Source: Seison nebaliae
Lineage: Eukaryota
Assembly (NCBI GenBank): GCA_023231475.1
Contig: JALJEE010001195.1
Coordinates: 1-55,573, forward strand
Length of the DNA stretch: 55,573 nucleotides
Direction: 5' to 3'
Position numbers and translations under genes: made by a program. The notes beneath the pieces are model-generated. The model worked only from the letters and a program-made list of their open reading frames with translations. It was not told the origin of the DNA and ran no database searches. Shown here one piece after another: positions 7,506 through 53,444 of this stretch; within the stretch, counting starts at the first letter, position 1; each line of letters begins with the position of its first letter.

Positions 7506-10500
7506 ATGGAAGTGATAGTTCGGAATACTAATATCGTTAGTAGATGTCACATCTCTTGATTTATCTGGAATATTTAACTACAGAACGAAAGCATTTTAGC
7601 ATTTGCTCAAGTGGTCGATGATATTTTTGAAAAGAACAAAGTCAACCCAACTTATTTTCAAACGATTTATCAAAGTATTTTAACTCGAATTCGAACTGTG
7701 AAAATTCAAGAAATTATTGTTCGATTTTTTCTAATAAATATATCTGATAAGTTTATTCTATAGAATTTAAGTGAAAATTTGATGAAATATGAGAAATTTA
7801 TGATAGTTATCAAAAATATCATAAAAATTGATACAGCAGCAAAACGTTTAAGTAAAAAGGATTCTTTATTAGAAGCAATCATTCGTCGAATCTTAGATGT
7901 TATTGTAAATGAAAAGTTTTAATTTTAAATAATCGAATAATCTTAATATTACAATTGTTCCATCAAGTGATGTAGAAAAAGCAGAAAAACAACTTTATCA
8001 GAACTATTTTCCGGTTGATGGGCAAAATGAGGAAATTAATAAATTTTTCATGAATTATATTCTCTTTTCAATTAAGTTTCATCGTTTCTTTTAATCCGTT
8101 TCCTTTCATTTGAATTTGAACCATTTTAGAATCAAAAGACGAATTCCAACATTCATTGATCAGGCTGTCAAATGGGAAGTGAATGAAGAGTTAATTTCTA
8201 TATTTCTCCAATTGATTTCGGTTAGTTATCATTAATTGAGAAAATATTTAATATGGGAAAAAGACTATTACAGAAAGTGATCCGACAATTATTCAATATT
8301 GCTCAAATGATATTCTAAATGTTATTTTAGTAATGAAAAGAAAAACGAATTTGTACAATGGTCAAATTGTTAAAATGTTTCTGCTTTTTTACAATCTCAA
8401 ACCAGATATGTGGAAGAAAATGTCCGAGGATGTGTTCCATCATTTATTTCAATTCAAGTTATTCTTTCAATTTGAAAGTGATTAATTCATTTTTAACAGA
8501 AATAAAGAATTGAAAAAGAATTTAACGGAATTCCTTCAACTTTCAATTGAAAATGGTAAACTGATTGAATTTGGTCGAAGTTTTTGCAAATTCCATCACA
8601 TTGAATTAACATCGGAGGATGTTAAAATTATCAATGAGCTGTTAGATTCTTTATTCGATTTTATTATTATGTTTTTAGAATTGAGGAAACATTCTCGAAA
8701 CAAGATAATGGAACACTGATGGAAGTTATTCAATTTCTATTGGAACATTCTGATAATATACGATCTACGAGAAACGAAATATTTTTTTGGAATATATTAA
8801 ATTTCGCATGGTCTTATATTCGTATTAGTGTCACGACAATGGATGCGAATGAACAAACAACTCAGTTGAGAAAGTATTACGAAGCAACAGAAAAACTGAT
8901 AAATGAAAAAGGAAATAAGTCAATTGAAAGTATGAAATTGAAGAAGAATTTAAGAATGTTCGACTTTCAAATGAATGGGAGTAAAACGTTGAAGAATTTG
9001 TTCGATAATAACGACGATTTTTCCAAATTGAAAAAGATGGCAAAGAAAATAGTGAAATCGTCGAATTATACTGATATTACAAAGACAGGAATTATTGATG
9101 GAAATGTCGACGACCTTTATCGACTATATTCGTATAGAAACTTTCGTATTGTTATTGAGAAATTATTTTATGAAATCTTCAATGAGAAAAAAATTTGTGA
9201 ATTTAACAAATTTGCAAAATCGTTCAAAGGAGATAATCGGGAAAGAAATATGAAGTTTTGTTTTTTAGGTATGAAAATTTTGGAAAGTGGCTGGAAGGAG
9301 ATAAACAACAATTTCAAAATTTTCCTTCAGAAAATTGGAGGACATATCCTGTTGAATTTAGAAGGTTTTCAAGAAGAATATATGCTCAGAACGATGGAAA
9401 CAATTAATATTGGAGTAGTTAATGAAATATTTGAGGAGAAGATTGATATACCAATAATTGGACGATTAATAAACTTGACAAAACGAATTCCATTTCTGAC
9501 TGACGACATTAAAAGAACTGAAAATCTTTATAAAAAAATTTCAGAGATTAACCAAAAGAATATCGAAATGAAGGAAATGAAGAAAGTGTTTGGAACTTCC
9601 GATAATTTTTTCAATGAACTTCCTCTGTTTATTACCAATGTGGAAAATTTAAAGTTATTTAAAGATGATATTATGGTTTATATGAAGAAGTTGAAGGATA
9701 ATGAATTACCGAACCATATTTTTTATTCGAATACGATAAGGAGAAATTTGAGCAAACTGATCCATCAATTATATAATTCCCGAATTGACGAACAATTTCA
9801 ATTACAATTAGCAGATGATTGGGAAGTGGTGTGTAAAAATGAATTACAGAATCTTTTGAAATTAGAACCGAAATTTGTTCAACCATTTTTAAAATGTCAA
9901 TTCCGCTCACTCTCCGCCGTCTCAAAGGAGAAAGATGAGAATGATGAAAAAATTATAAAGCTCCAAATGTTTTTCTGTCATTACCAGAATATGGAAGTTC
10001 CTCTGAATACTGAGTTTAATAATTGTTTGAACAGATTAGATGGGTTGGGAGAAATTATGGATATTATTCTTTCTGGTTTAATATTAAACAATCATCAAAA
10101 GCAATGGGAATATTTAAATTGTTCATGTAATTTGATTAAGGAAGTTTTTATCGAGAGATTAGGGGAAAATATCGTGAAATTGAATGATTTGCCTCTTAAC
10201 TGGCTAAATGAAAACGATTTGAATAATTCAGATCAATATGAACGATTATATTTACTCGTCGCCATCTGGTCTAGCATAGTAATGCGAAAAAATAATTTAG
10301 TTAATTTCGACAAAGTGATTGGAGTAGTTCGACAATGCCTAAAGATTCTAACGATTTCATTTCCGTCCAATACTTTTGTACAAACAAATACTGGTTCATT
10401 AAATATGAACATCTGTGATGAATTTTCGGAAAATGAGAGATGTCAACTTCTTTATTATTTCACTGTTTGTCAATTGATGGAATTGTTCCAATTCAGTTAT

Positions 10501-10870
10501 TTGAATGAACAAAAAGTTTTTATTTTCATTTTCATAACGATCAAAATTGAATAACTTTAAGATGAATAATTTCTTTGTGGAAAAAATTGAGTTGAATTTC
10601 ATTCCACTAATTTTATATGATTTGGGAAAAAATAAAAACAAGAGATCCAGGAAAGATATGTTTCATTATGGAATGAAATGTGTTAATATATTCCTTCAAT
10701 CTATTCGAAGTGTTCTATGGAGACGAATAAAAATGATGATGAAGAATGAACAACTTGAAGCATATGTACCGATTGTATCGGTGATGAAAGTGATTTCAGG
10801 TTAAATATTGTTATTTCAGCTGATTCCATTCCATTTGTCCTTCACCGATCTCTCTTACCAGCTGATTTAA
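7506..10870 (+). CDS. Uncharacterised ~980-aa, probably alpha-helical protein, about 10 exons
   Basis: Continuous frame after removing GT-AG introns 7536-7583, 7719-7763, 7916-7967, 8076-8129, 8221-8263, 8458-8499, 8641-8678, 10516-10561 and (uncertain) 10781-10820. Includes the 611-aa ORF. Confidence 0.75.
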
Positions 10871-14171: not shown

Positions 14172-17100
14172 ATGTTTATCCCGCTACTCCGGAAGAAACA
14201 ACGAGTGAAACATCTGCTGAATAGGGAACCGAAGTAAAAATATATTTTTGTAAATTTTACAGAGTGGGAATATTTCTCTTACAGTTTTAACCACTTGAGA
14301 AAGAAAGGAAGTGGAAATTAAATTTCTTTAAATTCTCATTTAATCGAGTGAGATAAACAAGAAAAAATAGAAAAAAAATGAAAATTAACCTGTTTTCCGA
14401 TCTATTGGTTCTATCATTGGAATGAATCAATTTTGTTCTCTAAATCCTTTTCTTGTTTTAATTAGAATCTCTTTATTAATTTTCATGAAATTGTGAGTAA
14501 AATTTAATTTTCCTAAAAGGAAAATGGTTGACAATGTCACCGATGATCCAATGGAAACTCCTGTCGATATAGAACCGAATGCAAAATATTTAGCTGAATC
14601 CAACGAAACTTCATCTGAAGAACTTTCTCACGAAATCCAAGACGATGACGAACAGAATGATTTAGAGAACTTATTTTTGCTATCGGTAAACGATTTCAAA
14701 ACGTTTATTCGTGATCCGGACAGTCAATGGTTTTAATTGTCTCTTAGAATTGTCAACATTTCAATTTCTTATTCCGTTAATAGGTTAATTGGAACGAATG
14801 GGAATTCAACTCGGTTACAACTGAAAAAAGAATTAAGCTTCTCAAATTCTGTTAATTTCAATAACTTATCAATGAACAGCGATGGGAATGATGACGAATA
14901 TGAGAATAATATGAAAGTTTCAAAATCGATGAGCCATTTCCAATCCGACAATTCATTAATCGAAAGATTAGATATGTTGAGTCAAAGTTAATGACATTAA
15001 TTCATCTTTAACGATGTCGTTTCACATCATTTTTCATATGGTCTTATTAGGTCGACATTCAATAGCGCTAAAATTGGGAGGTAAACGGATTTCTAAATCT
15101 CCAATTCAAAGTTTGTTTTTCTATTTTTTCTTATATGTCCGGTATTTCTGGTGTAATGGATTTGGGAAGTGAAAAATCAAATTATTTTTGAGTTAAGAGA
15201 GACACATGTATATTAGTAAATAGAAGAATTTTATGTTAACATTTGATTTGATGAAATTTCTCAAAAGGTTTAAAGGAGAATTCAATTTAATAACATCATC
15301 AGATCAGTAGTAAGAAGGAAAGCGTTCTGATAGAACATCATAGATTGGAAGGTAGTTGAAATTTTGTCTGACGGTATTCGTTCTCTATCATTTCCTTCAA
15401 TGCCATATTTGTGGACTTCGAATAATCACATTGGGTGATGTGAGAAAAAAATGTGAAAGGAGATAGGGAATAATGAATGAATGAAGAATATTAGTTTTTT
15501 ATAATTTTGAAAAAATTGTTGGGTTAATTGGTTTAATTAATTTCATTCTTCATGTTCAGCATTGGACGACGGTGAGGAAAGTGATGTTTTGCAAACGTCG
15601 CTATATTCGTCTTCTTCATTAGTTTATGATCATGAAGTGAACAATTGTACGAAACCAGTAGTACAGAGATCAGCAATTCCTTTATCACCGAAAACGATGG
15701 GATTACAACATTCTCCTTTCTCCTCCTCTTCTATTAACGTTCTCTTCTCACAATATCAACGACAACAACCTCCGAATCCTTCGTCTTCCTTCTCCACATC
15801 TTCGTCCTACATTTCTCTTATGAGTCGAAGTACGGATGATAGTGGTTATTTCGATTTCAATCATCATCCAACTACATCTCATAATTCATTATATCAACGA
15901 TATTGTCCATTGAATAATGATCTGAATTCAATCAACAAATACAATTCTTCATTAATTTTCGACAGTTTCGTTTATTATCATCAACTCTATCGAATGAGGA
16001 ATAGTTTAACTAAAACGTCTTCCGTTGATAATAATGACATTGGCACAATGTTACATTCATCTTCCATTTATTCTCTCATTAATAATCTCCATATGGAAAT
16101 TAATGATATTCGAACAAGTACCAGAAAGATGTTAAAAGAAACGAATTTCCCAAATTTTGTTCCAGTAACCAAATTCTCAATTTCTCCCGATATCATGGAA
16201 GAGATTAAACTTCTAAAAAATTCCAAACAAAAAAACAGATCCGATGATGAGACTGAATGGGAAGAGAATTGTGAGAATGACCAACTTCCTCGGGAAATGA
16301 GTGAACGTGAACGAATGATCATCGAACAAGAAAAGAAAATTTTGGAGAAAATTAGTTTTCTCAAACGACAAAGAATAACCACAAAAAATTCAATAAAAAC
16401 TCCGAGTAAAATCAATAAAAATAATGAAGACAAATTGACAACCATCACATCGATCGATAGTAACCAAAATAATGAAAACTTGTGTGAAGGTAGGAAATTT
16501 TTGACATTTAAAAAGAAAAAAGCCAAATGCACCAATATCATTAAAACGATAACTCCTGGAAATTTGAGATTAAATAAGAAATTGGAAGAAGAAAAATTGA
16601 AGAATGTCAAAGAGAAGATGAAATATGACAAATCATTAAATGAAGGAAAAGTGGATCAAATGACAACGTCATTCATTAGGAAACCTTCAGCTGTCCACAA
16701 GAATTTCCTTCAAAAAAACCAAAAATTAAAACGTCCCGACTCTCTCCACATTTCTGGAAGTCACTACAATTCAAAGGAAACTGATGATACCGATGACGGA
16801 AATGGAGAAGTGAATGAGAATGATTTAATGAAACTTCTCCTCCCATCGAACGAGAAAGACAAATTTGTTGCCCAATATTCGGCTTTACCAAAATCAGATA
16901 CGAATGATACTTTATCTGTAGCTAATTCGGTAGGAACAATCGTGAAACGACGTTGTCCTTCAAAAGCTGAAATGAAGAACGGGCCTGTAATACTCAGACC
17001 CAAGACGAGAGATGACAGATCAAAATTATGTAGAAGTGCATTTTACGAGCGGAAAGAAGAGAAACATATATCTTCGATGAATCTTCCAAGTTCAATTGAT

Positions 17101-20100
17101 AATGATGGAATGTTAACTTCAGGTGCATTAACTAATATAACGACACCAGATACGCCAACATATAATTTGGAAGAATATTTGAAAAATATGAAACAATTTC
17201 AATTTCAACCGTTGAACAAATCTGCCCGATTAGTTTTTCCTGCATCAGATGAAGACGATGAGAATCAATCAGATCTATTGTTTAATAATAAAGTGATGGA
17301 AACATCGATTACTACTTCCATTGGAAGTGTTTCGTCTTTGGGTTTCAATCGAAATGAGAATAAACACATTTTTTCCTTTCCGTCTCAACTTCTACCCGAG
17401 AAGAAATTTAAAGAGAATGACAATGATGAAAATGATTTCCTGAATAAGAGAGATACACCATTAGATGGTGCTTATTTCTCGCCTGTTGATTTTTCTTCAT
17501 CGTCTTCTGGAGATCAACAACACTCAGACAAAGATGATGGAATGATAGATGGATTAGGGTTCGAATGGGAAAATGAATGGAGTGATGAAACATGTCGAAA
17601 TGAATTATCTCAAGATGAAGATGAAAGTAATTATGGTGAAATGAGAATGATAAATAAAATGAATGAAGCATATCGAACACCATCTCACTCATCTGAGAGA
17701 TCTATTAAACAATTGTCCGATATCGAATCATTAGATACTTATCTGGTTGGAAATGACAATCCAAAGAAGAATTTCGTTAATGGAATTAATCATGAACGAA
17801 TGAAATCTATTCCTCAATCATCAGCCTTAAAAATCGCCATGGAAATGGAAGAGCGATTGATAAAGAATATGAAACGTATTTCGACAACAAAAAAACGTGA
17901 AGATAAGTTAGGGGAAGAGCAGCAACAAAAGAAGAGACAATTCAAACCTCTTTATTCCATCTTCCAACGGAAGAGACCAGCCATACATAACTCAAACACT
18001 TCTCTCCATATGAACACGAATGTTGGTGAGAAAATCGAGAATAAATTAGAAGTAAGAAAACCAATAACTTTCTCTAAACGCAATCGATTAAATGGTAAAT
18101 TTCCTTCATTTCCTCCAACTGTTTGTTTATTTTGTTCTTCCCCGTTTATTTTTAACTATTCTTCTTATCTACTTATTGGATGGGAAAGAATATCTTCATT
18201 TCTCCTTTTTATTTCTTTTCATTGTCATTTCACTTCCAGCATGAGTGCTATGTATTTGTCGTCAATATCCAATTATTTTGTGTTTCTTATCATTGCTATT
18301 GTCTTCTCACAAACTTTCTTTTATTTCTCAACTTTCGTTTGAATTCCTTAATCGTTTGACATTAAAACAATTTTACTATATATTTTAAGAGAAAAATTTT
18401 AAAGATTGCGGTAGAATTTAGAAAGAATAGGAATCTCTTAGTATGTTTTTGAATATCAATCAGTTTTTCTGTTTGTGAATTGTGAATTGAATGGAAAAAT
18501 TTTGTAGAAAAATTTTGTAAAAAGATAAAGAAAATTTCTTTTTGTTTTATGATAATATTATGAAGAAATCAGTTCTCAACTACTTCTACCAAATGGAATT
18601 GTTAACGATTGTGGATATGTTTCTCTTCTACGCTCTCGATCTCGTGATGCATTGAAGTCATTGGAAGAAGACATTTTATATCCGATTAATATGAGGGAAA
18701 ATAGTGGAAGTGAAGGATCATTGGGTCGATTAGGTATGTCATTTCCACCATCAGATTTCACTGCTGTTACTCTTAGTCATCATCACCAATTAGTGAAGAA
18801 GACATTGGATTATATTTTATTTTACTTGTTCTCGAGGCACAAATTGATTTACCTTCGAAAGAAGGCAAATAATTCTGGAAAATATTATTTCACTTTTATA
18901 TCTTTTTACGTTTCTTTTCACATCTAATCTGACGAGAATGAAAATCTAATATATGATTTCAGCTTGATTTTATCGCACACTTTACATTATATTATTTCAA
19001 ATATTTTTGTGATTATTTTATTTTCGATTCATTGCTACTACTAATTGATTTGTTCTTTTTTTTTTGTGTTGTGCATAATAACTGTATGATAATCTAATTT
19101 CATATTATTTTTCTTTTTCAAATAATTTAGAGGATGAGAGAAGGAATACATCAATCAAATCCATATCTTCCAACTGTTTGGAACCTTCGTCCTCTTATGG
19201 AAATCAGACGTACCATCACAAATTGAATGAAACTCGTAGTCCCAGTAAAGAAAGATCATCGTCGCGGGATAAAATGAAGAATCGTCCATTCGTCAATCCA
19301 CATGACTTTGAAAAGTTCCGTAATATGGTCGCTAACGTTGAAGCAAATCGACAACGAAGTCGTTCAAATAGTCAACAAAAATCTGGTTATGTTTCTGATG
19401 GTTCCAGTACGAATGTGTCGCCAATTCCTCAAGACACATTGAGAAGAGCAGAATGCCGTTACAACAAAAACTTGAATCGAACAATTCATGCTCAACTGAA
19501 CACAAAATTGACAAATCGTCAAATTCCACTCAACGAACTTACAGATGGACAATCAAACGAAGATGTGTCTGGCATTTATCATGTAAAAAATAGTAAAAAA
19601 GATTTCAATCGTTTTCGTAATTCCAATGGTGAGTTATTCTTTTAAAGCTAATTTTATTTGATAATTTTTTGTTTGTTCGTTTTGTCTGTGGATATTGATT
19701 TTATTAATTTTGTTTTAGTTTTCTAATAATTTTCTTTTTGTGTTACCTTGATGTAGGTGGAATTTATAATAGTAAGCCGCCGTTACCTATGAATGGGAAT
19801 TTGATAGGGAAACATCAACAATCACATCTTCTACAAACGTCGTCCTCAAATTATTCGGAGAAGTCGATCAGTAAGAATTTTTCAGAAGTCATCAATTGTG
19901 ATCAATTAACAACGCCCATCAGGTTGATAGAAATTTTATGAGAATTATCTCAGAATTTCTTTTATTTTCTCGTCTCCTTTGGTGTTTTGTGCATGAAAAT
20001 TGTATTTGCGATTTTTACCCATTTCTTTTTTTTATCAATCGAATTTAATAATTCCTTATTTTTGTTGCAGATCGTCTTCCGCATCTAACACGATTTCGAA

Positions 20101-21349
20101 ATCGCGGTTGAAACCACCGTCAACTATTCAAAATTCTTGTTCATTACAGCTTTCTTCCCAAGAAAAAAATAAAACGAAATCTCATTGCAATCTTGGAATC
20201 GATCAAAGAATATCTAATAATAAAATTTATTCATCAAACTCTCATCACTCTCGACTAAAGAGTCATGCATTTAGTGATGACGACGACGAGTATGAGGAGA
20301 ATATGAGAAATAATAATGAAGAAAATTTTGTGTATGAAGATGAACATGTGATGGATTATGGAGAGAATGATAAATTGAAAAATTGGGGAAAAGAAACAAA
20401 TGAAAAGAATGAACAGTCGATCGATTTTCATAAAGAATTGAATGTAGAAGAGAATTCGAAGAGTCAGAATATTCAAAATAAAAGGAAATTCTTAGAACTT
20501 CGTCGTAAGACTATAACAAAAGAAAGTGGGGCAATTATTTCGGGAATAAGACGACCATCCACTTCTCCCAATTCATCCAGAGCAATTAGTTCTAACACCC
20601 AATCTACACTTCCACATTCGTCCTTAGTCTCTACATCAACACGCAACAAAAAATTATCAACGTCCATATATAAAGAAGTGCGAGATAATTCCCCTTCCAT
20701 GTCTCAAGTTTCTTCGTCCACAACCGTGAATCGACCACTGGAAATCATTTCAACTTGTTCACCATCAAACCGAATAAGTGGGTCGGTGAGGAAACCAACA
20801 GGAAATCCAAGTCGGAAATTATCGTATACGGTTGCCACATTGAAGAATCGTCAAATGAATTCGAACGACCAATTATCATTTTCAAATGTTCAAGATAATA
20901 ATAAACTTTTGACAACGTCTCTCATTTCTCAAGTAAGTGATTCATCTGATTCAATAACTCGACGCCCAACCGTCGGCCATACAGCGAAAGGTGTTCCAGT
21001 CATTGCACCGTTCGAAGACATTGATAGTGGAATTTCTTCGTTTAATCTCAATGGAAAAGTTAAATATCCTGAAACTACATTTTCTTCATCATTCTATTCG
21101 CGACGAGACGAAGAAATTGACGAATCTCATCCTACTTCCTATTCGAATGAACAGTTAATAACACCTAACGTGACGAGAGGAAATTTCCAATCGAAGTTAA
21201 AACCGATCTCATATATCAACAAACCAGGCTTCTCTTCTGAAGCAACACATCGAACACATCTACCGACAGAAAGACTATATTCCAAAACTGGAATAAACAC
21301 ATTTTCGAAAATGAGATTGAGTTCAAAGCATTTGAATAGCCAGCACTAA
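14172..21349 (+). CDS. Large (~1716 aa) Ser/Asn/acidic low-complexity protein of unknown family
   Basis: Phase-compatible exons 14172-14233, 14520-14729, 14784-14986, 15051-15080, 15560-18094, 18566-18733, 19131-19628, 19757-19922 and 20071-21349 sum to 5151 nt. The 5' end is uncertain. Confidence 0.65.
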
Positions 21350-33978: not shown

Positions 33979-35520
33979 ATGACGCATAATTTGAATGATG
34001 TACTTATGGATATATTATGTCGTTTAGCGGATTGTCGAAATATTATGTCAACGACAACTCTCATAGAAGAACATACGAAACATGAACCAAATCGGATTTT
34101 ATTGAGTCAAAGTGTCATCAAAAATGTATGTTTTTCATTAAATTTCTTTCCCTTAATATTAATCGTCTAATTTCCAGAATTATACATCCAGAGAACAATC
34201 TTGTCTCTTTCAACATCAACGTAGACGTTTGAAACGATCGAAACCGATTCCAAACATGATTGTCGAGAAGAAGAGTTCTCTTCAACCATTGAATTTCCAT
34301 AAATTAATTTATAATCATGAACATTCGAAATATTTGAAGGATGATAATCGACGTCTTGTTCGTGCTATTAAAAGGAATTATTTATTATTAGAGATTAATC
34401 GTTTATGGCGACTACATGGATTTACTGATATTCCAATTATATCTAAACAATTGACGGAACTCGAATTATATTCGAAGCCGATTGTCATATCACCGATATT
34501 TCCATCAATTTCTCCAAATAATAATTATGAACAAATTGATGATAATTCAACAATTTCTCATGATAATAGTGTGGAAAGTGAGAAGAATAATCAATCATAT
34601 TCTATCGTAATTAAACCTCCACTTCATATGCAAATGATGAAGGAAATTGAATTATCCAAAATATCGAAATGGAAAAAAGAACGATCAAATTTTTCAGATG
34701 TAGTTAATCATACGAAAGAACCAGTCATAAAATTCGAACCATTAAACAAATCTCACGTCCAAACGCTTAACAATCTTTTGAATATTTTCTATGCCGATTT
34801 CCAAAGTGACGATTTTATTGATGTCACTCCTTGGCTCCAATGGCCAAATCAGACGGTTATAGCCATAGGTCCTGGTAATATTATCGTTGGATTTGCATGT
34901 TCAATAATGCAGTACCATTATTTATCTCGAACGAAACTAACGAAACCGCAACTTCTTTACCGATTATCGGACGAGACGGAACACAAAGTAGAATTGAGTC
35001 AGGAAAATGACGAAACAGAAAATAAGAAATACAATTATAATGAAATACGATTCTGTCTAACGGATCAATTGTTTGTTAAAGGAAAATTGAGAAATCCTAG
35101 ATGTAAACAAGTCTATCTTCCATATGTTTTCATTTTACCGAATTGGCGAAAAGTGGGAATTGGAAAAAAAATGTTAACTCTCCTTTTAAAACAAGTTCAA
35201 TCCGTTTTTCTTTCTTATAAAAATGATTATTTCTTTAGATTATTCGTCAACGATCTTCTCATGAAGGTTTTACAATCGCATGTATTCATGTACCCACAAC
35301 AGATTGTGATACATTAATTTTTTTTCAAATGTTCGGATTTAAAATTCTCAAGAAGATTATTGGTTTTTATAAAAATTTCAATTACAAAAAAATCCGTATC
35401 GGTTGCAACAGTACCAGATGTTCACAACATTTACAATTGGATGAAACTCATCTTTATAATGAACTTCCAACTTGTGTTCCAAAGCGGTATGATGCATTTC
35501 TATTGTCTCTCGTTTTGTGA
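33979..35520 (+). CDS. KAT14: GNAT lysine acetyltransferase, KAT14/CSRP2BP/ATAC2-like
   Basis: Introns 34126-34177 and 35195-35238. Motifs HVQTLNNLL..F, IDVTPWLQWP, FILPNWRKVGIGKKML, IHV...FFQMFGFK and AFLLSL match the KAT14 C-terminal domain. Confidence 0.75.
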
Positions 35521-35732: not shown

Positions 35733-38053
35733 ATGGTCTCCAAAAATCGAAAAGATAAATTATCGAAGAAAGAAGAAATTTTTCAATCACAACTAAATGA
35801 TGAAATTAAAGAATTAGAAGAAACTTTAGGAAAAATCGATAAAGATAAAAAATATGAAGATTTTATTGATTTACCAATTTCAAACAAAACCAAACGAGCG
35901 TTGAATAAAAATTCCTTAATAACATTAACAGATATTCAACGGGATACTCTCATTTATTCATTAAAAGGAATTGATGTGATGGGAACGGCAAAAACAGGAA
36001 GTGGGAAAACATTGGCATTCATAATTCCAGTTCCAATTTTTCTTTTTTTTTATTTTTTCTTCATTTTTCAGATTCTAGAACTTCTCTATAAAAAACGATG
36101 GAGTAAGATTGATGGATTAGGAGCTCTCGTTATAACACCAACTAGAGAATTGGCGTATCAAATTTTTAATGTTTTACAAAGAATAGGAAAGTTCCATGAC
36201 TTCTCAGCCGGTTTAGTTATAGGAGGGAAATTTATGAAAAAGGAAGCAGAAGTTATTCGAACAACAAACATAATAATTTGTACACCAGGAAGGCTGTTGC
36301 ATCATATGGATGAGACATGGAATTTTAATGCTGACAACATTCAGTTGTTAGTTTTAGATGAAGCGGATCGTATGTTAGAGATGGGATTTGAAGAGACAAT
36401 GATAAATATTTTACAGAATATTCCAGAAATTCATCGACAAGTTCTATTGTTCAGTGCCACGAGAACCAAGTGAGAATTATCTTTTACTTTTGTAAATTAA
36501 TAAAAAAATTTTCTTTAAGGAATTTAGATTCTTTGATAAAGTTGTCTTTGAAAAATCCTGTGGATATTTCCTCTCATGAATTAAGCGCATTGATGACACC
36601 TGATAAATTGAAACAATATTATATGGATGTGAAAGTTGAGGAGAAGATTCATATTTTATGGAATTTTATAAAGATTCATGTCAATTCAAAAATACTCATT
36701 TTTGTTCAAACGTGTAAACAGGCGAGATTTATTTTTGATGTTTTCAGTCATATGCAACCAGGAATTCCCTTATTGGTTCTACATGGAGCAAAGAAACAGT
36801 TACAACGTGTAGAAATTTATAACCGGTTTTTGCGAGACAAACGTTCGTGTCTTATTGCAACGGATTTGGCATCAAGAGGACTTGATTTCCCTTCGGTTGA
36901 ATGGATCGTGCAAATGGATTGTCCTTTTGATATCGAGACATATATCCATCGAGTTGGACGAACAGCACGTAAGGACTTGAGTGGACAATCATTATTACTC
37001 GCAACAAATAGTGAAATGAAATATTATTCTTCAATTTTCCAAGAGAAGAGAATTCCGATAACTAAAATGGAATCGAAGAAATTTCATAAATTTTCGATTG
37101 AAAATAAATTACAAGTGATTTGTGCGAGAGACCAAACTTTTCAACAAAATGCTAGATCAGCTTTTGTGGCTTATTTCAAATCGTTGTATTTGTCGGGTAA
37201 AAAGGAAATATTCGATATCGATTCAATTAACAAAGATGAATATGCACAATCTCTCGGACTTGTCACTACACCCAGATTACGATTTTTAAAGAAAATGGAA
37301 AATTCCCAATTTTCCGTTGAGATTGATCAAGATGATGATGACGAAGTAGAAGTTTTAATTAAGAAAGTGTCAAATCGATCGACTGATTTTGAAGATAATG
37401 ATGATGTGGAAGAAGATTTAAAATTAATGAATGAAGAAAAAATTAAAAGAAATCAAAAGAGTAAATCGAAAAAAAAAATAATTTCCAACTTACTAAAGAA
37501 AGAATCGAATGAACAAACAACAAACCATATTCATTTCACCGAAGATTATGAAATGGAAGAGGAAGAATTAAATGATGATGAAATAAGTGATATATTGACA
37601 ATTGATAATCGTTTGGAACGAATGAAAGAGCAAGATAAGATTGATAAAGAAACTTATCGGAAGTTGCTTAAAGATAAACATAAAGAAAAAAAAATTAAAG
37701 AGAAGGACAAAAATAAAGAAACAAAAGACGATGAAAAGAACCAAAAGTTTAATGTTTCTCTTAATATGGATAATGATGATAACAGTGATGTTACTGATAA
37801 TTCTGACGAAGATTTTATTGAGAATAAAAATAAAAGAAAAATAAGAAAGGATGGAAATGAATTTGATTCAGATTCACAATCAGATAATAAAGAAATTTTG
37901 GAAACCAATCTGGATTCTGATGAGGATAGAAGAACAAAAAGAAAAAGATCATTAAATGAACAAGATGTTGGAAAAGAAGATGAAATGAAGAAAACGATGA
38001 AATTTTCATTGGAACAATTAGAAGCAGAAGCATTAAAAAACTTAAGTGGATAA
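35733..38053 (+). CDS. DDX10: DEAD-box RNA helicase DDX10/Dbp4
   Basis: AKTGSGKTLAF, WSKIDGLGALVITPTRELAYQIF, HDFSAGLVIGG, DEAD, SAT, HRVGRTAR. Introns 36030-36071 and 36470-36519. Confidence 0.95.
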
Positions 38054-38134
38054 TTTTCATGAATTTTTCGATCTATCTCCTATTTCAGTTAAGGAATATA
38101 AATATATCATTCAATTGCTTAATCTAAATTGATG

Positions 38135-40927
38135 TTAACCTATCGTTAATTTTCCTAATGCTTCTATTCGATTTTGTATCGCTGGTTTTTCCATGCTCTT
38201 CAACTTTTCCAAAGCATCATCGAGTGATACGGAATTAGCGAGGAGTCCCTTCTCCATTAATGTTGATACTTCATCGATTGCAGATTTCATGTCGCCATTT
38301 GTAGTATGTTTATCTGCCTTTTTAATTAATTCAGATTTGAGTAAAGCAGCATTCGTTCTTGCTGTATTCATGGTAACACCAGGACGTAATGGTAAAGAAG
38401 AAGAAAATCCGATCTTCTTTCCAATCAATTTCTTCTTCTGTTTCTTCTTTCTATTTTTTTTCTTTTAACAAAAATAAATTATCGAATAAAATAATTTTCT
38501 AACAGATTTAGTTGACTAAAAATGATGAATGTTCAAATGGAACAATATTTAATATTTACGAAATAATAATAAAGAAAATTTTAACAGTTGACCGTTTTCT
38601 CGTATGGGAACTGATAATACTTTCTGTTTCCGACGTTTCCAACGATTCCGTTCGATGATGTTTTCGACGTTTCTATAAAACTTAATTTTCAACAAATATC
38701 AGAGAAATTATAAACTGTTCTTGCAAAAATGCTCAAGAAAATTCCATCGGAAATTGATGTTGGTGGTGCTTGATAATAGTTCGTGAAGGTCATATGCTTC
38801 TCAATTCCATCTTGATCAATCGGAATTAACGGTGGTGAAGGTTTAAATATCCAATTGTAATTAGATGTAGTCCGAAATTCCTTCAAACAAGCATTCACTA
38901 AATCGCTGTTTTCTGCTGTATTGATGGATGTCGTCATATAAACGATTGCAGATACAGATCGAACTAAAAAGAATTAATAAGAATTAATAATTAGAGAAAG
39001 AAAAATATGGCGAACAAGTCATTGCATGTAGCATTAATTCTCGTTCACGAGATATCATCGAATTGATGTTACTTCTTCCGTTTTGTAAATCTGCAAATGT
39101 TTTCAATGAACTAAAATCTAATGTATGTCAATTTCATTTTATGTCATAGATATAAATCGTTGAAGATAAACAAAACCATCACTATGTCGAACAAAATAAT
39201 CAACTGGGTCTTTAATTCCGCTAGTCGAACCGTCGACATTGATTGTGATAACTTTAATATCAGACCATTTATCTGAACTGTTTTTCGTCGAAATAAAATT
39301 CTCTCGGTGTAAATTGATCGTCTTCTTATAACCAAGTTTCTGAATAAACGTTTGAATTTCCTGGAATTTTTCTGTTGATATATCATTAGTAAATGTATGA
39401 ATTATTCCATTCATTCCGTAAGATAATGACGCTATTAATGATGGGAGATATCCTATGTGATGTTATTGGAATATTAATTTATCATTTAGAAATTATGCAA
39501 AAACCATTATCAACATTGGTAACGATAATTGGATCCTGTCGATTTAACAATTTCACAGTTGTATAGGCAGTTAAGTATGTTGTTCGAGAATCGATAATCA
39601 ATTTAAAGGATGTAATCAATTTTGACGATTCCAATTTATCTCTACATCAGATTCATTAAGAAGATTCCAAATTATACAAAAATACTTACTCAACTGATTT
39701 ATCAAACATTAATAGCGATGAAAAATTTGGGTCGACAAAATAATGATCTTCATCTGTCCCATCTGATTCTTCAACACTCTTCAATTGTAGTTCTTCTTCC
39801 AACATCTTCGTCACTTCTTCCGCACTTAAAGATGAATGATATCAATAGAAATGTCTGAATTCTCAATGTCTAACTTAGATTTTGCAAAATTGATCCAAGC
39901 ATAGAAATGTTTGACAGGAGATGTTAAATCGGTGGATGTGTCTTTATTTGAAGCGAGACTATCCAAATCCTGTGCTTCATGATCGATTCTAAATGAAAAA
40001 TAAATTAACATTTTCAGTTTTTATTTAATTAAATCGAACCGATTTCGAGCAATAGATGCAGCAATCTTCGTTCCCCAACTATTAACTGCATCTTCAATTT
40101 TGTAAAGAATCTCCTCTCCCTTTTCTTCGTCATTCAATATATTTCTTTTAGTAAATTTCCTTCGATAACTATCAAAAGCAATTATTGTACAAAAGTTCTC
40201 ATATTCGGAGAACTATTAACAGATGTTGTGAGAGAAAAAAAAAGAGGAAAATGAACATCAGGAAAAGTTGTATAGAATTCCGTTTCATCCATAATCTTTT
40301 CAATCAGCCACTGAACTTCAAAAATTGAAAAATTATTTTTTCCAATTACAAAGAAAGAATGAAACATTTCAAGACTCGGAAGGCTAATCGGAGAACATTT
40401 TCTTTTTGTTTGGGTGAATCATATCGAATATCCAAACCTTCTGTTAAATGCGAGTCTTTATCAGAATAATTTCCAATTTCAACTTCTTTTGTTTCTTTTA
40501 GAAATCCATAAACTTTTGATGCTTTCAATAACGTGACTTGGTTATATTCCAATTTAACTTTATGGATGGCATTCTTTAAAATTTCTCCATCCATTTCAGG
40601 TGTTTTTAGTTGGAAAATCTTTCCAAATTGTCTCAATCTATCATCCATTGAAGTAACTGAAATTTTCTTGCTAACTAATCGTGCTATACTTATACAAAAT
40701 GGGAAAGTAATTCAACAGGTAAAAGGAAAGAACAATTATTATTATATAGACAATGCTCATAACGAACTAGCAAGTGTAGTATATGACGGCATATTCTCTT
40801 TCATCTCACTGTTCTCGGATGACCTCTGACTCTCCATATGAGTTTTGGACAACTTCCTACTCCTACTCCTACTCCTTTTTATGGATGAAATAGACGATTG
40901 TCGTGACTTTAGCCGACCTCCAGCCAT
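38135..40927 (-). CDS. NSUN7: NSUN7-like RNA m5C methyltransferase-family protein, about 13 exons
   Basis: Spliced product contains RLAFRVLKFQWLIEKIM, IIAFDSYRRKF, KIAASIARNRIDH, FYAWINFAK, KVITINVDGSTSGIKDPVDYF, LHAMTF and AIVYMTTSINTAENSDLV, colinear with vertebrate NSUN7 blocks. Twelve short introns. Confidence 0.85.
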
Positions 40928-41214: not shown

Positions 41215-41696
41215 TCACAAAGGAGGTTGATTCAGACGTTGTTCTTTTTTTTCATTCTCAACATATTTCTGGAATTGTTGAAAAACCTTCGAAGGAAAAA
41301 AAGTTGAAAGAAAACTATTTTTTTTCCAATTAAAAAATAAACTTTTAAGTTCAATAAATAATTGGGAGTTGGTTTATTTTTAATTGCATAAAAATAAAGA
41401 TCCCATTCATTGTCAGTTGCATTTAAAATTATATCTAATTCCTTCAATTCATCAAGTTTCATTTGATTTATATTGTTTTTGACGAAATTGGACAAGAGAA
41501 TTCCATTTTCTAAATTTCCTCGTTTGCGACTCTGATAAATGAGCCGACTTCTAATTAAATCTTTATTTTCATTTACGCCTTTCGCTTGATTATATTCATA
41601 TGCGTTCGAAAATTCAGAAAGATTCGTTCCAGATGAATGTCGAGTATTTATAAATGCTTTTATTAAAGATAAACGAGAATTCACTGAGCGAAACAT
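41215..41696 (-). CDS. SDHAF2: Succinate dehydrogenase assembly factor 2
   Basis: RSRLIYQSRKRGNLENGILLS...NEWDLYFY. Removing intron 41287-41342 restores the C-terminus KEQRLNQPPL. Confidence 0.93.
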
Positions 41697-46059: not shown

Positions 46060-49000
46060 ATGAGAGGAAACGTTTATATGATTATCTTGATCATATGCGC
46101 AGTGCACTGTGAAAAAAGAATGATAGATTATTGTTACGAGAGGATTGCAACAAATAATAGTGATTTAGAACGATTAAATAATTTAAAGATTGTACTCGAG
46201 GAGGTAACGAAATCACAGGTTGATTCATTAACTTGCGCAATAAAGTTCAAAGAAATAACGAAAAATTTGCCTATGGTAGAAGAACATCGATTTAATCAAG
46301 TTTATCGATATTATCTTGGTACACAACTCTTCGTACAATATGGCATCATAAGAAACGGAGAATTATATCTCAATACTATCTGCGCAATGGGTAATGGAAC
46401 AAAATTGAAGAGATTGATATTTTTCGATACATTTGTCATAAAAATTGATTACAAGAATGAAGGGAGATCGTGCAATTTAATCGACCATCGATGCATAAGT
46501 TTTCGAATAAAATCAAAAGAATTATTGGATCTGAAAGAGATTGAAGGTCAATTCTATGTCCTTACATTACACGAAATTTGTGTTGCTCAAAGGATATTTA
46601 GTGAAGATTTATTTCGAAGTTTATCTGGCGAAATGATCATCGATATTTCCTTGTTAATAGAAGAGAAAATTTTCACTTGTGAACAAATTACTGTAACTTC
46701 ATATGATGATGGTAGATTAGTTGATGCAAATTCAATTTTAATTTTCAAAAACAATGAAACCGCAATCGTCAATTGGAGAAATCACAATGAAATCGTTTTG
46801 AAAAGTTTTTCTGAGTTTAATCAATTGGGTATAGATTTTGGCAGTGTGAATAAATTTGATGGTGCGTTAATTTACTCAAAATCGGCAAAATGTTCAGATA
46901 AATCTCAAAGTATTTTCAGTCATTTCGGTTGTTTAGAAAGCGACGAACAATGTGAAAATGTAAATGAAGGCGGGAGATGTTTTTATTGCAATGAAGTACA
47001 GTCTTGTGTACCAACGAATTATATTCATATTTGCAAATTCGAAGTGAAACAATCTTGTAATTTGTTGTATATCGAAAACGACCGTTTTAGAACCGATAAT
47101 TATCAAATTTCCTGTATGAAGGATATTGAAGATGGAAAGACAGAAGCAAAGAATGCTATACCTATAAATTCAATCATGTACCAAAAAGGAGATGATACGT
47201 TGATTATCGATTTACAAGGAAACGTTGCGGAAGTATCACAGGTGAATTGCATAATACAAAACATCATGGCTGAAGACATATATCATATGCCTGAAATTGT
47301 ATTAAAAGATTATACGGCTGAACCTTTTTTTCCTTTTGAGTTATATGGTTTCAACGGAAGTCAAAAAATGATTGATAAGAACTTTATGGACAATATAATG
47401 TGTAATTCTTCATATGAATTTGAAAGTTTCATGTTTCAGGATATAATTTTTGAAGAATTTATGATAAAGTTTCCTTATCCTTCCAAACAATTTTTTAAAC
47501 TTATCATTTTAGAGACTTACACAATTTGGTAAATTCTTTAGAGAATATGGATGTTCCTACTGAAATCCGAGGTACTTCATTAAATTTGACAGGAGAAGTC
47601 ACCAACTTCAAGGCAACTATTAAAGCGAAAGATAATTTCTGTCCAAATCCGTCCAGTCGAATCGTTAACGTTTTATTTTTTTGGGCGTTTCCACCACAAA
47701 TATTTGGATATATTGGGAAAAATTTTACATTGGACACTGGAGATACTATTGTAAAATTCAGTGGAATCAATTTTAAATCTGCCTATAATATTCGGATAAG
47801 AATTGATGTTACTTCCGATCTCCTTCGAGTGAACACATTTGACGAGTTTCTGTAAATATTGTTAATCATTTTTCAATAACTAATTCACTGATTTTTAGGG
47901 AAGATGGATCATCGAACAATTTTGGAAATGTTTAGAATTAATTGTAATTATTTGTAATGAATTATTTTCTTTAACATTAGATTGGTTCATGTTTAGACAA
48001 CCTAACTAACAATACATTACTCACTTGTAAAACAAAGATTATGAGCAAAGTGCAAATCGAAAATTACCAGACTCCAACTATGGCTAATATACGTATATTA
48101 TCAGATGAAGTTCCTACATCATTATCTGATAGGGCAGCACAAATAAATGTTTATAAAACGCCGATTATGAGCAGATGTGAATTTGACATAATTAATTGTG
48201 AAAGCAAAATACCAAATAGCAAATATGTTAATAAATTATCTACTGATTTCATGACGAAAGTTAATCAAAGAATTTTTATTATATTAAATTTACGAAATTT
48301 TCTTAGACTCAATATTTATCAGAAGTTGTTTATAATCATGTGAAGATAAGTCTAGCTAGAAATGGAAAGTTGTTTGACCTACCCGATTATTCGGATATTG
48401 TAAACGGCAAATTGAAATATACATTAAATATTGATAAACAATATCTGATGGAGAATCGAATAGATTTAAGTAGCTTCCCAAATCTTATTCCAGCGACATA
48501 TGAAGTTCAGGTTAATAGTTAAATATTCCTACATTTTTAATTGGATGTGTCTAGTGGAGAATTGATGAGAATGGACGAGTGTGGGACATTTGTCGAATTA
48601 TATTCACTGATGAAATACATAAATTAAGATCAAGTATTGATGACATCTGCTCAACAGAAGATAATAAATTAATTATTTACCTTGGAGTTCTCGCGGGAAT
48701 TATTGCTTTGTTACTAATGTTCTTAATGATAATTGGATTAAGGAATTATCATTTAAACAAATTAACTATATCAAATTCATTAAAAGGTTTCTTACTTGTT
48801 AGAAAATTCTAAAAAAAATTAAATTTCTTATTATTTAAAGATAATTCATTATATTCTGATAAATTTTCAGAATTAAAAATGAATCTTCGATGCAAAGTTA
48901 TTCCAATAGAAAATATAAAATTTGAGAAATTAGTTGGATCGGGCAATTTCGGTAAAGTTTTTCAAGGAAAATTGGATAATTCTTATTCTTATGGGAAAAT

Positions 49001-49982
49001 GAACAAACCGGAAGATAAATATGTTGCTCATCGAAATTTATTTGAAACGATAGCAATTAAAACCGTAAATAGTGATCTCATTGGAGTAAATTCAAAATTT
49101 CATCGGTTTTTTTCTCGAATTCAACCAGACAGTTATCTTAATCAACGAACGGAACTGTTGAAAGAAGCAATTATCATGAATGATTTGATTACGAAAATTG
49201 ATCATCCTAACGTTGTTCCTCTATTATGTATATGCTTATCGGAGAATATATTAGACTTGACACCATATATAATTATGCCATATTATGATCGAGGTGATCT
49301 TATTACATTTCTGAAGACAAATAAATTAGTTCTTTTCTTTCTATTATATCTTTTTCATTGAGATTTTTCTGTTAGTCAATCAAACAGAAAATATTGTTTT
49401 GTATTCAAGCGGTTAGAGGAATTGATGCCATTCTTAAATGTGGCATCATTCATCGAGATCTTTCTGCACGAAATTGTTTAGTGACATGTGACATGGAACT
49501 TGCTATAAGTGATTTCGGTCTCGCACGTCAGCTATTCCAATCATCAAACAAACAACTTTATACTGCAGAAGTTTATAAATAATTTGAAAGTTTTTATTAA
49601 TTTTTTGATTATAAAGACGGAACATCGTTTACCATTTCGCTCGATGTCACCTGAATGTTTGAAAAAGAAGAATTTCAACTGTTTCACCGAAATTTGGGCT
49701 ACTGGCGTACTATTTTGGGAAATATTTTATGAGGGTCGAATGCCTTATGAAGAACTGGACAACGAACCTGGAGATATTGTACAAAACCTTTACAGGTATC
49801 TCAAAGCAGGAAAACGATTAACAAATGATGAAAGAATTCCGAAAAAATTGTTAGATTTAAATTCAAATTTTTTTTATTATATTACCTTAAAAAGATATTC
49901 CTTAATGTTGAAAATGTGGGATGATGAACCATCAAATCGTCCAGAGACGAAAATCATCATCAAAATTTTGGAAATGATATAA
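46060..49982 (+). CDS. Receptor tyrosine kinase, divergent MET/RON-like
   Basis: Signal peptide, Cys-rich PSI-like cluster, IPT-like segment, TM helix (LIIYLGVLAGIIALLLMFLMIIGL), then GSGNFGKV, IAIK, PYIIMPYYDRGDL, HRDLSARN and DFGLAR. Introns 47469-47512, 47846-47898, 47930-47980, 48260-48306, 48511-48554, 48787-48840, possibly 49072-49128, 49329-49375, 49571-49616 and 49850-49894. Confidence 0.85.
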
Positions 49983-50012
49983 TAATTTTTTTTCGTTCAA
50001 TTAAATTATTTT

Positions 50013-50360
50013 TTACGCATCATCCGGCATGGCCGATTGTCGATTATTCTCTTCGGAAGTCAACGCACCAGCTTCTGGTTCATAACTTCGTAAACGTTCT
50101 TTCAACTTCAAATTGTCGTCAGTTAATTGAACTACCTTTTCTTTTAATTGTGCCACTTCAATTTGTAAATTTTCCACATCAGCACTTTCAGGCACTTCGC
50201 GCCCGAAATATTTTTTTATGACATCAATCGGATTATTCGGCTTTTCAGGTTCCTCATACAAATTTACCAAAATCTTCGTTAACGCATCAACTACTCCACA
50301 TCGTTCAAGATATTTTCGGAATTCTTCTTTCTTTTTATCGGCACTTTTGAAATTCGACAT
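50013..50360 (-). CDS. MYCBP: c-Myc-binding protein (AMY-1)
   Basis: FKSADKKKEEFRKYLERCGVVDALTKILVNLYEEPEKPNN followed by a coiled coil. Confidence 0.93.
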   Translation of the reverse strand: MSNFKSADKKKEEFRKYLERCGVVDALTKILVNLYEEPEKPNNPIDVIKKYFGREVPESADVENLQIEVAQLKEKVVQLTDDNLKLKERLRSYEPEAGALTSEENNRQSAMPDDA

Positions 50361-50504: not shown

Positions 50505-50810
50505 ATGGTTCAAGGAAAACAAAAGTTAATTTCGAAGAAAAAGAAAGTTTTATCATCTAAAAATGTCAAAGTTAAAATTGTGAAAACAACAAAAAAGTAT
50601 TCAACGAAAAAAAGTTCAAATATTTTTTAATTTTAATTTTTTATTTTCTTCCATATTAGCCAAGCCGATGAAAACGAAAGGAATTAGCGTTATTTTCTTT
50701 CTAATGTTCATTAATTCCATTAACATCATCATTTCATTATTTAGGAATTATCGAAGGGAATTGCACAAATGGCGGAAAATGCGATCAAAGAGAAAAGTGC
50801 CGCCAATTGA
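50505..50810 (+). CDS. C19orf53: UPF0390/C19orf53-like small basic protein, 67 aa, 3 exons; missed by the ORF track
   Basis: CACCATGG start; introns 50614-50659 and 50689-50744; product MVQGKQKL...ELSKGIAQMAENAIKEKSAAN*. Confidence 0.7.
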
Positions 50811-51010
50811 ACATAAATTAATAATTGGTTTTCATAAAATTATTTCGTATAAAAAATTATTGTCAACCAATCTTATCTTCTATAATCAGGAAAAAAAGAT
50901 TCTTTATTCTAAATTCTTATTTATCTGTGATATCTTCGTTGTGGGAATATTATTGTGAAGATAAAAAAATAGAAATTTCAATAAAAATATCTGTAGAAAT
51001 TGAAGGGAGA

Positions 51011-53444
51011 ATGTATGGAATGTTATTAGAAAGTTTGCATTTTTTCATTGTAAAAGAATATGGGAAAGATGTTTGGGAAACTGTTCTACGCAAATGTTTC
51101 ATTTTCGAACAATATTTCATTACACATAAAGTTTATGATGAGTCTTACATTCCAAATCTTGCTAATGGTTAAAATGAATATTTTGTTTGTTTGGAATAAA
51201 ACGAATTTATTTATGCATATATTGAATTTAGCTTTAGCATCTATAACATTAAAGTCAGCAGATAATCATTTGAAATATTTCGGAGAATATTTTGTCCGTT
51301 ATCTCTCGTATTATGGTTATGACAAATTGTTACGAGTAGCGGGAAGAGATTTCAGTGATCTACTTCATACCATTGATGAAATTCATGAGACGATGAATTT
51401 TACATTTCCTCGAATGAAATCACCGTCATTTTATGTTGAGAATGAAACAGATTATGGAATTCAACTTCATTATCAGTTTCTTATTTTCATCTTCAGTTGA
51501 CGATTTATGACTTCTATATTCAAGTTCTTGTCGTAAAGGATATACTTCTTATGTTATCGGCCAATTGGAAACATTAGCGAAAATGTTGTATAATATTGAG
51601 ATTGCTGTGACACCGGAAGATAGAAGTGGAGAAAGTGGCTCTTACATCGTTTTTCATATCAAATTCGATAATCAACCTAAAAGGAAAAAAATGGTTGTCA
51701 AATATGAAACAACAGGAAATTGTTTATTATTTGGTGATAATAATTATGAAAGGATCAAACAACAACAGTTGGAAAATATGGGAAACACAATTCTAAGTAA
51801 ACGAAATCGAATTATTAACGGAATATTTCCAACGTTCAAATTTCTTAAAGTTTCCGATAATATTTTAAATGAAAAATTAAATTATTTTCATTCAGATTTT
51901 CCCATTTCACATTATTATTGATAAAGAATTACGGATTCGACATATGGGAAATAGTTTAAGTCGAATTCCAATATCTAAAAACTTTTTGGGTTCAAAATTA
52001 CTTAAACATTTCCATATTAGACGTCCATCGGTCAATTGTTCATTCGAAAGAGTTCAAATTATTTTCACAGTCAGTTAATAAATTAAAGAATACTTTGAAG
52101 ATCGTAAATTTTTCTTCTTATCATTTATTCGAATTGGAAACGAAATTGAATTTGGGAAAGAAATCTCATTGTACAACTTCGCTGGTATTAAAGGGTCAAA
52201 TGAAACATTTTCCTGTTTGGAACTGTATCATTTTCATATGTCGTCCACTGTTAGACATTCTCATTTTTATTTGTTGAGAGAATAAAACTTTTCTTGAACG
52301 ATTTATGATTATCTATTTAATAGATTAGAAAATATTCAAGAAATGGAACAACTTGGACTGTTCATAAATGATTTATGTTTATTCGATGTCAGTCGAACAG
52401 TAATTATTGAAGGAACGAATAGACATTTTAAATTAAAAAAAAATTTTATGAAAGTTTTCATTTTCCTTAAATTATATTAATTCATTGATTTATTCTAGGC
52501 AACCGATTTAGTAGATCAGATGCATTGCATCAATGATCGATTGAGAAAGCAAGAGAGTCGAACGAAAGAACTCCTATTCGACTTATTTCCTTATCAAATC
52601 GCTCAAATGATTGAAAATGGGAAAAATGTTTTTGAAATTAACGAAGTTCATCAATTTGAATTCGAAGTAACTAACAACCATTTTTTAGACATTCGAAGAT
52701 ATTAGTTTAATGATGATTAGATTATCTAATTTGGATATTCTTCAAAGTATTTCTCCTCCAAAATTACTTATTGAACAACTTAATCATCTTAATAGAACAA
52801 TCGAGATATTAATCAAAAGCTATCATGTCACTCGTGTTAATTTTGGTAATGATTCCTCATACATAATTGCATCAGGCATCCGAAAAATGAATGAAGATAC
52901 AAATATGATAAAAAGCGATTCAAATACCAGTTTAATGAAAGTAATTTTCAATTTATTTAATAGAATTTCAAATTCATTCAATTTAGACTGTTGAAGATTT
53001 CCAGATGAGCGATGAGTCCATAATGTCCGATGTCATGAGTCAAACTAAAACTGAACCGAATTTGACAGAAATCCTGTTAATTCTCGCAATGGACATTCGG
53101 GAGTCAGTAAAAAAGTCGAAATTGATCAGTGAAAATTTCCATTTCCAAATTGGAATTCATACCGGAAACGCGATGGGATGTATTGTCGGTCATGAGACAA
53201 TCCAATATTTTCTATTTGGACAAATTGTAGAAGAGACGAAATTAATTATGAATTATTGTGCTGACAAAGAAATATTATTATCGAATGAAGCTGCTCTTTT
53301 CATCAATAAAAGTCAATACAACATCGTACAAATCGAGGTTTTCTTCCTAATTATTTTTTTATTAATCAAATTTTTCTCTTCTAAAAGAAATGTTTAGATA
53401 ATCCTGAGACAAATAAAAAATGTTGGGTATCCTCCTGCTACTAA
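51011..53444 (+). CDS. Atypical soluble guanylyl cyclase subunit (Gyc-88E/89D-like H-NOX, PAS, coiled coil, degenerate cyclase), 10 exons
   Basis: MYGMLLES, YGYDKLLRVAGR, DEIHETM, FPRMKSPSF, YHSCR, FPFH, LKGQM, GLFINDL and IGIHTG. Introns 51168-51231, 51476-51524, 51850-51895, 52052-52100, 52250-52323, 52454-52498, 52646-52688, 52941-52986 and 53338-53387. Confidence 0.9.

Follow-up and report, generated by a model that had tools for sequence, protein, structure and literature searches.

GTT donor sites predominate among the short predicted introns of a Seison nebaliae contig

The subject of this report is the 5' splice (donor) sites of short predicted introns in one stretch of AT-rich genomic DNA (GC content ~0.3) from Seison nebaliae, the 55,573-nucleotide (nt) contig JALJEE010001195.1 of assembly GCA_023231475.1, hereafter the window. 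Animal introns usually start with GTA or GTG, and few features of animal splicing vary as little as the 5' end of U1 and the purine at intron position +3. Among 42 short introns placed in the window, 38 start with GTT, three with GTA, one with GTG and none with GTC. On the DNA evidence of this one contig, the pattern is confirmed as real and unusual. Seison is a seisonid (Rotifera/Syndermata) that lives on the crustacean Nebalia, according to passages of PMC8351084.

Placement of the introns

All introns were placed from DNA alone; sequencing runs X1 and X2 behave as DNA, yielding contigs without spliced joints, and runs X6 and X7 yielded no contig. Mapping three database proteins exactly, letter by letter, onto the window, with any intron ends permitted at a penalty, gave 9, 13 and 9 introns for P0121, P0122 and P0123 (the last matches the window exon with 100% identity). 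Every one of these 31 introns is GT-AG and restores the reading frame; 29 have GTT donors and two GTA. They come from a database gene prediction. The other 11 short introns were chosen by us from the output of our own gene model, which is blind to donor positions +3 to +8, and are GT-AG by construction. The sample thus comprises 42 introns in nine genes; a candidate at 15494 was dropped as doubtful and is included where n = 43 and excluded where n = 42. Intron length is 42-84 nt, with a median of ~50 nt. By their ends, these are real-looking introns of the major (U2-type) GT-AG class, but the U1-complementary GTRAG type of donor (R, purine) is not what they carry, GTR being found in only 4/42.

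A first-pass annotation of the window had described about 49 introns of 38-84 nt, mostly starting with GTT. The predominance of GTT stands; 42 introns rather than 49 were placed here, and no intron shorter than 42 nt was found. The ten donors that it listed as examples are all located correctly. Its further remarks, that positions +4 to +6 vary and that exons usually do not end in AG, agree with the 42-intron set and with the finding of AG before the donor in 4/43 cases.

Several checks bear on whether the donors have been placed independently of any preference for GTT. In well-aligned homology blocks the junctions are GTT in 8/8 cases: junctions 1-5 of the soluble guanylyl cyclase (sGC) gene lie inside gap-free blocks of the alignment with human beta-1, as do two kinase junctions in the alignment with EGFR (a third, 49571, adjoins a one-residue gap), and DDX10 intron 1, left unspliced, becomes a 14-residue insertion relative to human DDX10. 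Run unsupervised, the donor-blind model places T at +3 with a frequency of 0.62 across 68.5 expected introns, the local background being 0.42 on the forward strand and 0.55 on the reverse strand. When its acceptor, length and body terms are trained on the 31 protein-mapped introns, it recovers 24-27 of the 31 donors, and its +3T frequency is 0.77-0.81 for the genes of the three mapped proteins and 0.65-0.68 for genes held out of training. Even under a canonical GTRAGT prior that sets +3T at 0.04, the same three genes still show +3T at 0.63, and GTT makes up 16 of the 18 donors recovered. For 30 of the 38 GTT donors (33 of the 38 examined by script, five by eye) there is no frame-keeping non-GTT donor within 24 nt; the other eight have such an alternative (five GTC, one GTG, two GTA), two of which are ruled out by homology. 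In the worst case, with all eight alternatives true, GTT would still account for 30/42.

Excess of U at +3 over composition

The intron bodies are rich in T (0.50) and poor in G (7%), and the predominance of GTT must be judged against that background. A frequency of 38/42 exceeds the T content of the bodies (p 3e-8), the frequency of T after T (0.55; p 6e-7) and the frequency of T after internal GTs (23/39 = 0.59; p 7e-6, Fisher p 0.001). It also exceeds what is expected with respect to A: U outnumbers A at +3 by 38 to 3 (p 0.0009 with dinucleotide composition as the null, p 0.019 with internal GTs). +3A occurs in 3/42 and +3C in 0/42 (p 0.001); +3A is below its neutral level at short-intron donors. 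Positions +4, +5, +6 and +7 have T in only 19, 10, 18 and 17 of the 42 introns, so that no neighbouring position shares the T excess of +3. Composition nevertheless predicts at least half of the T at +3, and the actual signal is the excess together with the loss of the +3 purine rule. Positive selection of U at +3, as the first-pass annotation had proposed, is accordingly sustained in part: U looks like the favoured base and exceeds composition, although much of the T is compositional.

Anatomy of the splice signals

Pairing of donors with U1 was scored against a U1 5' end taken from an environmental locus, L015. The GTT donors have, on average, 3.76 Watson-Crick matches to this canonical U1, and 121 decoy GTs have 3.61 (p 0.24). 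At +4 to +6 the GTT donors match no better than 56 decoy GTT sites (0.84 vs 0.80, p 0.40), but on the exon side they do (0.92 vs 0.54, p 0.003). The few GTR donors behave differently. At +4 to +6 they have 2.25 matches, compared with 1.03 in 34 decoy GTR sites (p 0.003), and all four short GTR donors have six of the nine canonical U1 pairs, as do 2/34 decoys (p 2e-4); one of these four, 39689, has low support in the donor-blind model (0.03-0.06). In animals, it is normally the disfavoured +3 base that needs extra consensus elsewhere. Here the compensation is reversed, in that GTR rather than GTT carries the extra +4 to +6 consensus, which suggests that U is the favoured base at +3. Extra matches in GTR donors, their absence from GTT donors and the sub-neutral level of +3A are together what would be expected of a reader that prefers U.

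What chiefly distinguishes true GTT donors from decoys is the sequence downstream, which is U-rich and G-poor (p 5e-6 and 3e-7). Exon ends, counted for the 39 introns (of 42) whose frame is resolved, are A-rich, with A in 66 of 117 positions from -3 to -1 (43.9 expected, p 3e-5), while G at -1 is at background (8 vs 7.1 expected). At the other end of the intron, the stretch from +40 to the acceptor is free of any further AG in 41 of the 42. The acceptor is TAG in 26 introns, AAG in 13 and CAG in three; at acceptor position -3, A is at its background share and G is the one base excluded, a departure from the customary YAG. Any signal for a branch point is at most weak: seven of eight patterns are not enriched relative to mononucleotide shuffles (n = 43), and TRAY, one of five patterns tried with a simulated null, is found between -30 and -15 in 25/43 introns against 16.2 simulated (p 0.009). 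An apparent enrichment of TGA near acceptors disappeared under a dinucleotide null.

Longer introns may follow another rule. The low-complexity gene at 14524-21349 is readable, in a model made by hand, as a single frame of 1694 residues interrupted by five introns of 128-479 nt. Four of the five donors are G/GTR (the slash marks the exon end) and all five have G at -1; the gene-model posteriors are 0.16-0.75 where listed, and GTT alternatives exist. A length-dependent second class of donors is, at this stage, a lead.

The search for U1

A Rfam scan of the window for small nuclear RNA (snRNA) genes returned a single transfer RNA (tRNA) gene, and a U1 loop pattern had no match in it. U1 was also sought elsewhere. 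When metagenome contigs were scanned with a pattern, 129 loci matched, almost every one of them a U1 gene; one of these, L015:1527-1617, whose mean identity to the remaining animal-like U1s was the joint highest, served as bait at a capture limit of 80% in four (X1-X4) of the five DNA runs that contain the window. Each of the four runs gave one U1 contig, with 80 of 91 letters like those of L015 and with a loose end that is the canonical box, ATACTTACCTG.

These U1 contigs are short (626-2236 nt), and their depth, 5.4 in X1 and 15.2 in X2, is 0.4-0.6 of that of the window's contigs (13-14 and 25-27). The loose end agrees with that of an unrelated environmental U1, L121, in 23/25 and 28/30 letters, and 4/5 listed changes are common to the two (by eye). 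The retrieved sequence may be a multi-copy U1 of the host or of another animal; that it belongs to Seison has about one chance in three, which limits the weight that it carries against a variant U1. If Seison's own U1 is diverged, the 80% capture limit may have let it pass unseen.

Two further observations were made in the same material. Environmental contigs L002, L013, L015, L042, L066, L067 and L079 have U1 clustered with U2, U5, 5S or U6 within 3 kb. Low-depth contigs in X1 and X2 are ~81-83% identical to window positions 36192-36460, 37051-38419 and 51090-51172, and represent a second lineage or paralogues; the last of these alignments extends five bases into the GTT intron that starts at 51168, a weak hint of a shared donor.

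Interpretation

The explanation that we prefer, with confidence a little short of even, is a change in the spliceosomal base that contacts +3 (most probably, A now faces +3 in a U1 snRNA), combined with an intron definition based on length and composition; the snRNA step is one that we infer. In its broader form, in which an intron-rich animal has recoded its donor to GTT, whether by altering the +3-reading base of U1 or U6 or by splicing most introns with near-absent U1 pairing, the proposal likewise stands a little below even odds. The GUU region would provide three or four pairs, insufficient alone to define a site, so that recognition probably spans the whole intron. A U-rich body of 42-60 nt reaching to the first AG would define the intron, with loop 1 of U5 holding the A-rich end of the exon and the altered +3 partner setting the register at GUU. 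Length-based definition was among the suggestions of the first-pass annotation, and the narrow range of lengths, the U-rich and G-poor bodies and the lack of another AG past +40 in 41/42 introns fit it. The rare GTR donors would survive through better pairing at +4 to +6, and a canonical U1 copy may coexist with the changed reader, which could alternatively be a changed U6 G44 or a protein. The variant U1, the altered U6 and the changes in U1C, LUC7, SNRNP27K or METTL16 that the first-pass annotation had suggested are all at the stage of candidates. An A partner is probably to be favoured over a G partner (U6 G44) because +3C is absent, and its location in U1 because Entamoeba, the one lineage with +3U donors found in the literature, has A there (passages of bioRxiv 10.1101/2022.06.08.495308).

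A number of considerations weigh against a changed reader. The case is built on 42 introns, drawn from nine genes on a single contig, and 31 of these introns come from a database prediction. +5G is still enriched, if mildly, in GTT donors (7/38, p 0.012) and among all donors (10/42), and +3C is rare at the donors of other animals too. The hand-modelled long introns, whose donors were picked by eye and are G/GTR in four of five cases with 6-7 canonical U1 matches, suggest a working canonical U1. The sole U1 recovered from the runs is canonical, and the variant-U1 version of the proposal fails should Seison have no other. Lastly, a canonical U1 is retained in several lineages whose donors are atypical at +4 (passages of bioRxiv 10.1101/2022.06.08.495308).

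A rival reading, which we regard as real but rather doubtful, is that there are two donor classes served by canonical snRNAs: a normal U1 would read GTR donors and long introns, and short GTT introns would be spliced with little or no U1 pairing, through intron definition, U5 contacts with A-rich exon ends, wobble of U6 G44 with U at +3 and U-binding proteins. The canonical U1 contig in all four runs searched, the six of nine canonical matches in 4/4 short GTR donors (2/34 decoys, p 2e-4) and the difference of the hand-modelled long introns from the short ones (+3R in 4/5 vs 4/42, p 0.002; -1G in 5/5 vs 9/42, p 0.001) are all as such a division of labour would have it, and U6 ACAGA need not change in order to pair with U at +3 (Roy and Bowser, in passages of bioRxiv 10.1101/2022.06.08.495308), the contact of +3 with U6 G44 being a weak one (passages of PMC11732430). 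What it does not account for is the scarcity of +3A, which a canonical U1 should not push below neutral (3/42 vs 0.22 after T), and the U1 contig on which it leans is maybe not Seison's, given its depth (0.4-0.6 of the window's), its length (626-2236 nt) and its likeness to L121.

Simple relaxation of selection, in which the purine rule has lapsed, C is excluded, U fills +3 by composition and a species-trained gene predictor inflates the rest, is unlikely. It draws on the T that follows 23/39 internal GTs, on the modest +3T frequencies of the unsupervised model (0.62 over 68.5 introns, against 0.42 and 0.55) and of the held-out genes (0.65-0.68), and on the eight of 38 GTT donors that have a frame-keeping non-GTT alternative within 24 nt. 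However, the model averages take in many uncertain parses, the preference for U over A is still significant (p 0.0009 and 0.019), the T counts at +4 to +7 (19, 10, 18 and 17 of 42) confine the excess to +3, and of the alternatives, absent for 30/38 donors, only two are GTA and two of the eight are excluded by homology. A shift of register, with canonical U1 pairing one base further into the intron (GTT-RAGT), is very improbable and is contradicted by the counts, +6G being found in 2/38 GTT donors and +5A together with +6G in 1/43 donors.

An intron-rich animal with a GTT signal would demonstrate that co-evolution of donor code and spliceosome does not require earlier intron loss, and Seison would offer a natural test of the component that reads +3 and of the minimal U1 pairing that short introns require. 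In practical terms, gene predictors with animal defaults would miscall such GTT genes.

Relation to known systems

The nearest described parallel is Entamoeba, whose donors are GUUUGU(U), 88-90% of them GUUUGU, with a co-evolved U1 (AACAAAC); in each of the five Entamoeba species whose donors have +3U, the U1 sequence is ACAAAC, and the compensated snRNA changes described are those of amoebae (passages of bioRxiv 10.1101/2022.06.08.495308). To call the GTT pattern an undescribed system, as the first-pass annotation did, is in view of these passages an overstatement. The two share a dominant +3U and short AU-rich introns, but Entamoeba is, by the same passages, intron-poor and has a strict motif of 6-7 nt, whereas the mapped Seison genes have 9, 13 and 9 introns, although several genes in the window are intronless, and only +3 is fixed. 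With +4U in 19, +5G in 10, +6U in 18 and +7U in 17 of the 42 introns, a GUUUGU-type donor was rejected, and a U1 change, co-evolved in Entamoeba, is a proposal for Seison.

The U5-class AG//GUNNN donors of animals and plants (passages of PMC11732430) are similar in their degenerate +4 to +6 and exon-side signal; in Seison, however, the exon end is AAA-like, -1G does not exceed background and U is fixed at +3, a position left free in the U5 class, and membership of that class was rejected on the counts of AG at the exon end (4/43) and G at -1 (8 vs 7.1 expected). The same passages link loss of METTL16 or SNRNP27K to a shift toward +4U, which is absent from the 42 introns (19/42, background 0.50). 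Bdelloid rotifer introns are mostly 42-70 nt long, a likeness to Seison, with G/GT at seven class-1 tubulin introns; these passages of PMC3464624 give no +3 counts. The Seison genome paper, in the passages at hand (PMC8351084), mentions introns twice, in connection with gene compactness, and splice sites once, as a method, and its two supplements contain no match to splicing terms. No +3U-dominant donor of any animal, rotifers included, was found in a literature search from which subscription journals and logo figures were largely out of reach, nor does one appear in the passages at hand of bioRxiv 10.1101/2022.06.08.495308, PMC8351084, PMC10125929, PMC11732430, PMC11347168, PMC3464624, PMC10639083 (whose main text does not contain "Seison") or PMC3033335. 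No paper was found that pairs "Seison nebaliae" with "spliceosom". The novelty would lie in a GTT-only signal in an animal rich in introns, which would be the first in Metazoa within the literature found.

The short introns of nematodes and other compact animals are, like those of Seison, short, U-rich and likely subject to intron definition. In those animals, however, GTT is a minority and usually accompanied by +5G, whereas in Seison GTT makes up 90% and the extra consensus is in the GTR class.

Genes and other features of the window

The features that were located are collected in Table 1; in the window, intronless genes adjoin intron-rich ones. The sGC-like protein retains a His aligned to the His of human beta-1 that we take to be its haem ligand, and its cyclase domain aligns poorly. 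The match of P0122 to the RsmB/NSUN Pfam family is weak (E 0.024), the gene includes a 12-nt micro-exon (38504-38515), and it may be a fusion of two genes. The two introns of the small basic protein gene have donor posteriors of 1.0 in the donor-blind model and 0.93 under the canonical prior.

Table 1. Genes, introns and other elements located in the window (donors are given by the position of the first intron base; posteriors are those of the gene model)
Feature	Coordinates	Strand	Introns and donors	Basis or remark
Transposon-like pieces, broken	1-900, 24100-26300, 44800-45330			By eye
Large gene	7618..10804	+	GTT 7916, 8076, 10516	Posteriors 0.95-1.0
Low-complexity gene	14524..21349	+	Short: GTT 14730 (counted), 14987 (not counted). 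Long: G/GTR 15081, 18095, 18734, 19629; G/GTT 19923	Long introns from hand model
tRNA gene	26700-26772	-		Rfam
Kinesin open reading frame (ORF), 1509 codons	28235-32761	-	Intronless	Presumed label
GNAT acetyltransferase gene, KAT14-like in first-pass annotation	34006..35520	+	34126-34177 (GTA, canonical-type), 35195-35238 (GTT)	Pfam GNAT, E 0.007; donor-blind model
DDX10 gene	35733..38053	+	36030-36071 (GTT), 36470-36519 (GTG, canonical-type)	Posteriors 0.98, 1.0
P0122 gene, 721 residues, NSUN-like in first-pass annotation	38057..40927	-	13: GTT 40767, 40365, 40256, 40039, 39874, 39504, 39176, 39015, 38715, 38585, 38503, 38139; GTA 39689	Exact mapping
SDHAF2 gene, intron	41287..41342	-	GTT	Posterior 0.75; Sdh5 Pfam match
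CCHC zinc-knuckle protein	42268-42894	+	Intronless	Pfam
PRPF3	43345-44568	+	Intronless	
MET/RON-like receptor tyrosine kinase gene (P0123)	46120..49982	+	9: GTT 47469, 47846, 47930, 48260, 48511, 48787, 49329, 49571, 49850	Exact mapping; PDB kinase alignment
MYCBP-like ORF	50013-50360	-	Intronless	Presumed label
Small basic protein gene	50505..50810	+	50614-50659 (GTT), 50689-50744 (GTT)	
sGC beta-like gene (P0121)	51011..53444	+	9: GTT 51168, 51476, 51850, 52052, 52250, 52454, 52646, 53338; GTA 52941	Exact mapping; Pfam HNOB, HNOBA and cyclase matches
TCTP-like ORF	53797-54312	-	Intronless	Presumed label

The two exons of the large gene that were tested, and a 619-codon open frame at 3073-4929 on the forward strand, have no Pfam match. 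A similarity search with PRPF3 found relatives that are only 37-50% identical, and no close taxon. The kinesin, TCTP and MYCBP labels of intronless ORFs are ones that we presume. The broken transposon-like pieces are presumably MULE/DDE-like and gypsy-like, judged by eye, and among these stretches is a high-copy repeat with a depth of 130-400 in the sequencing runs.

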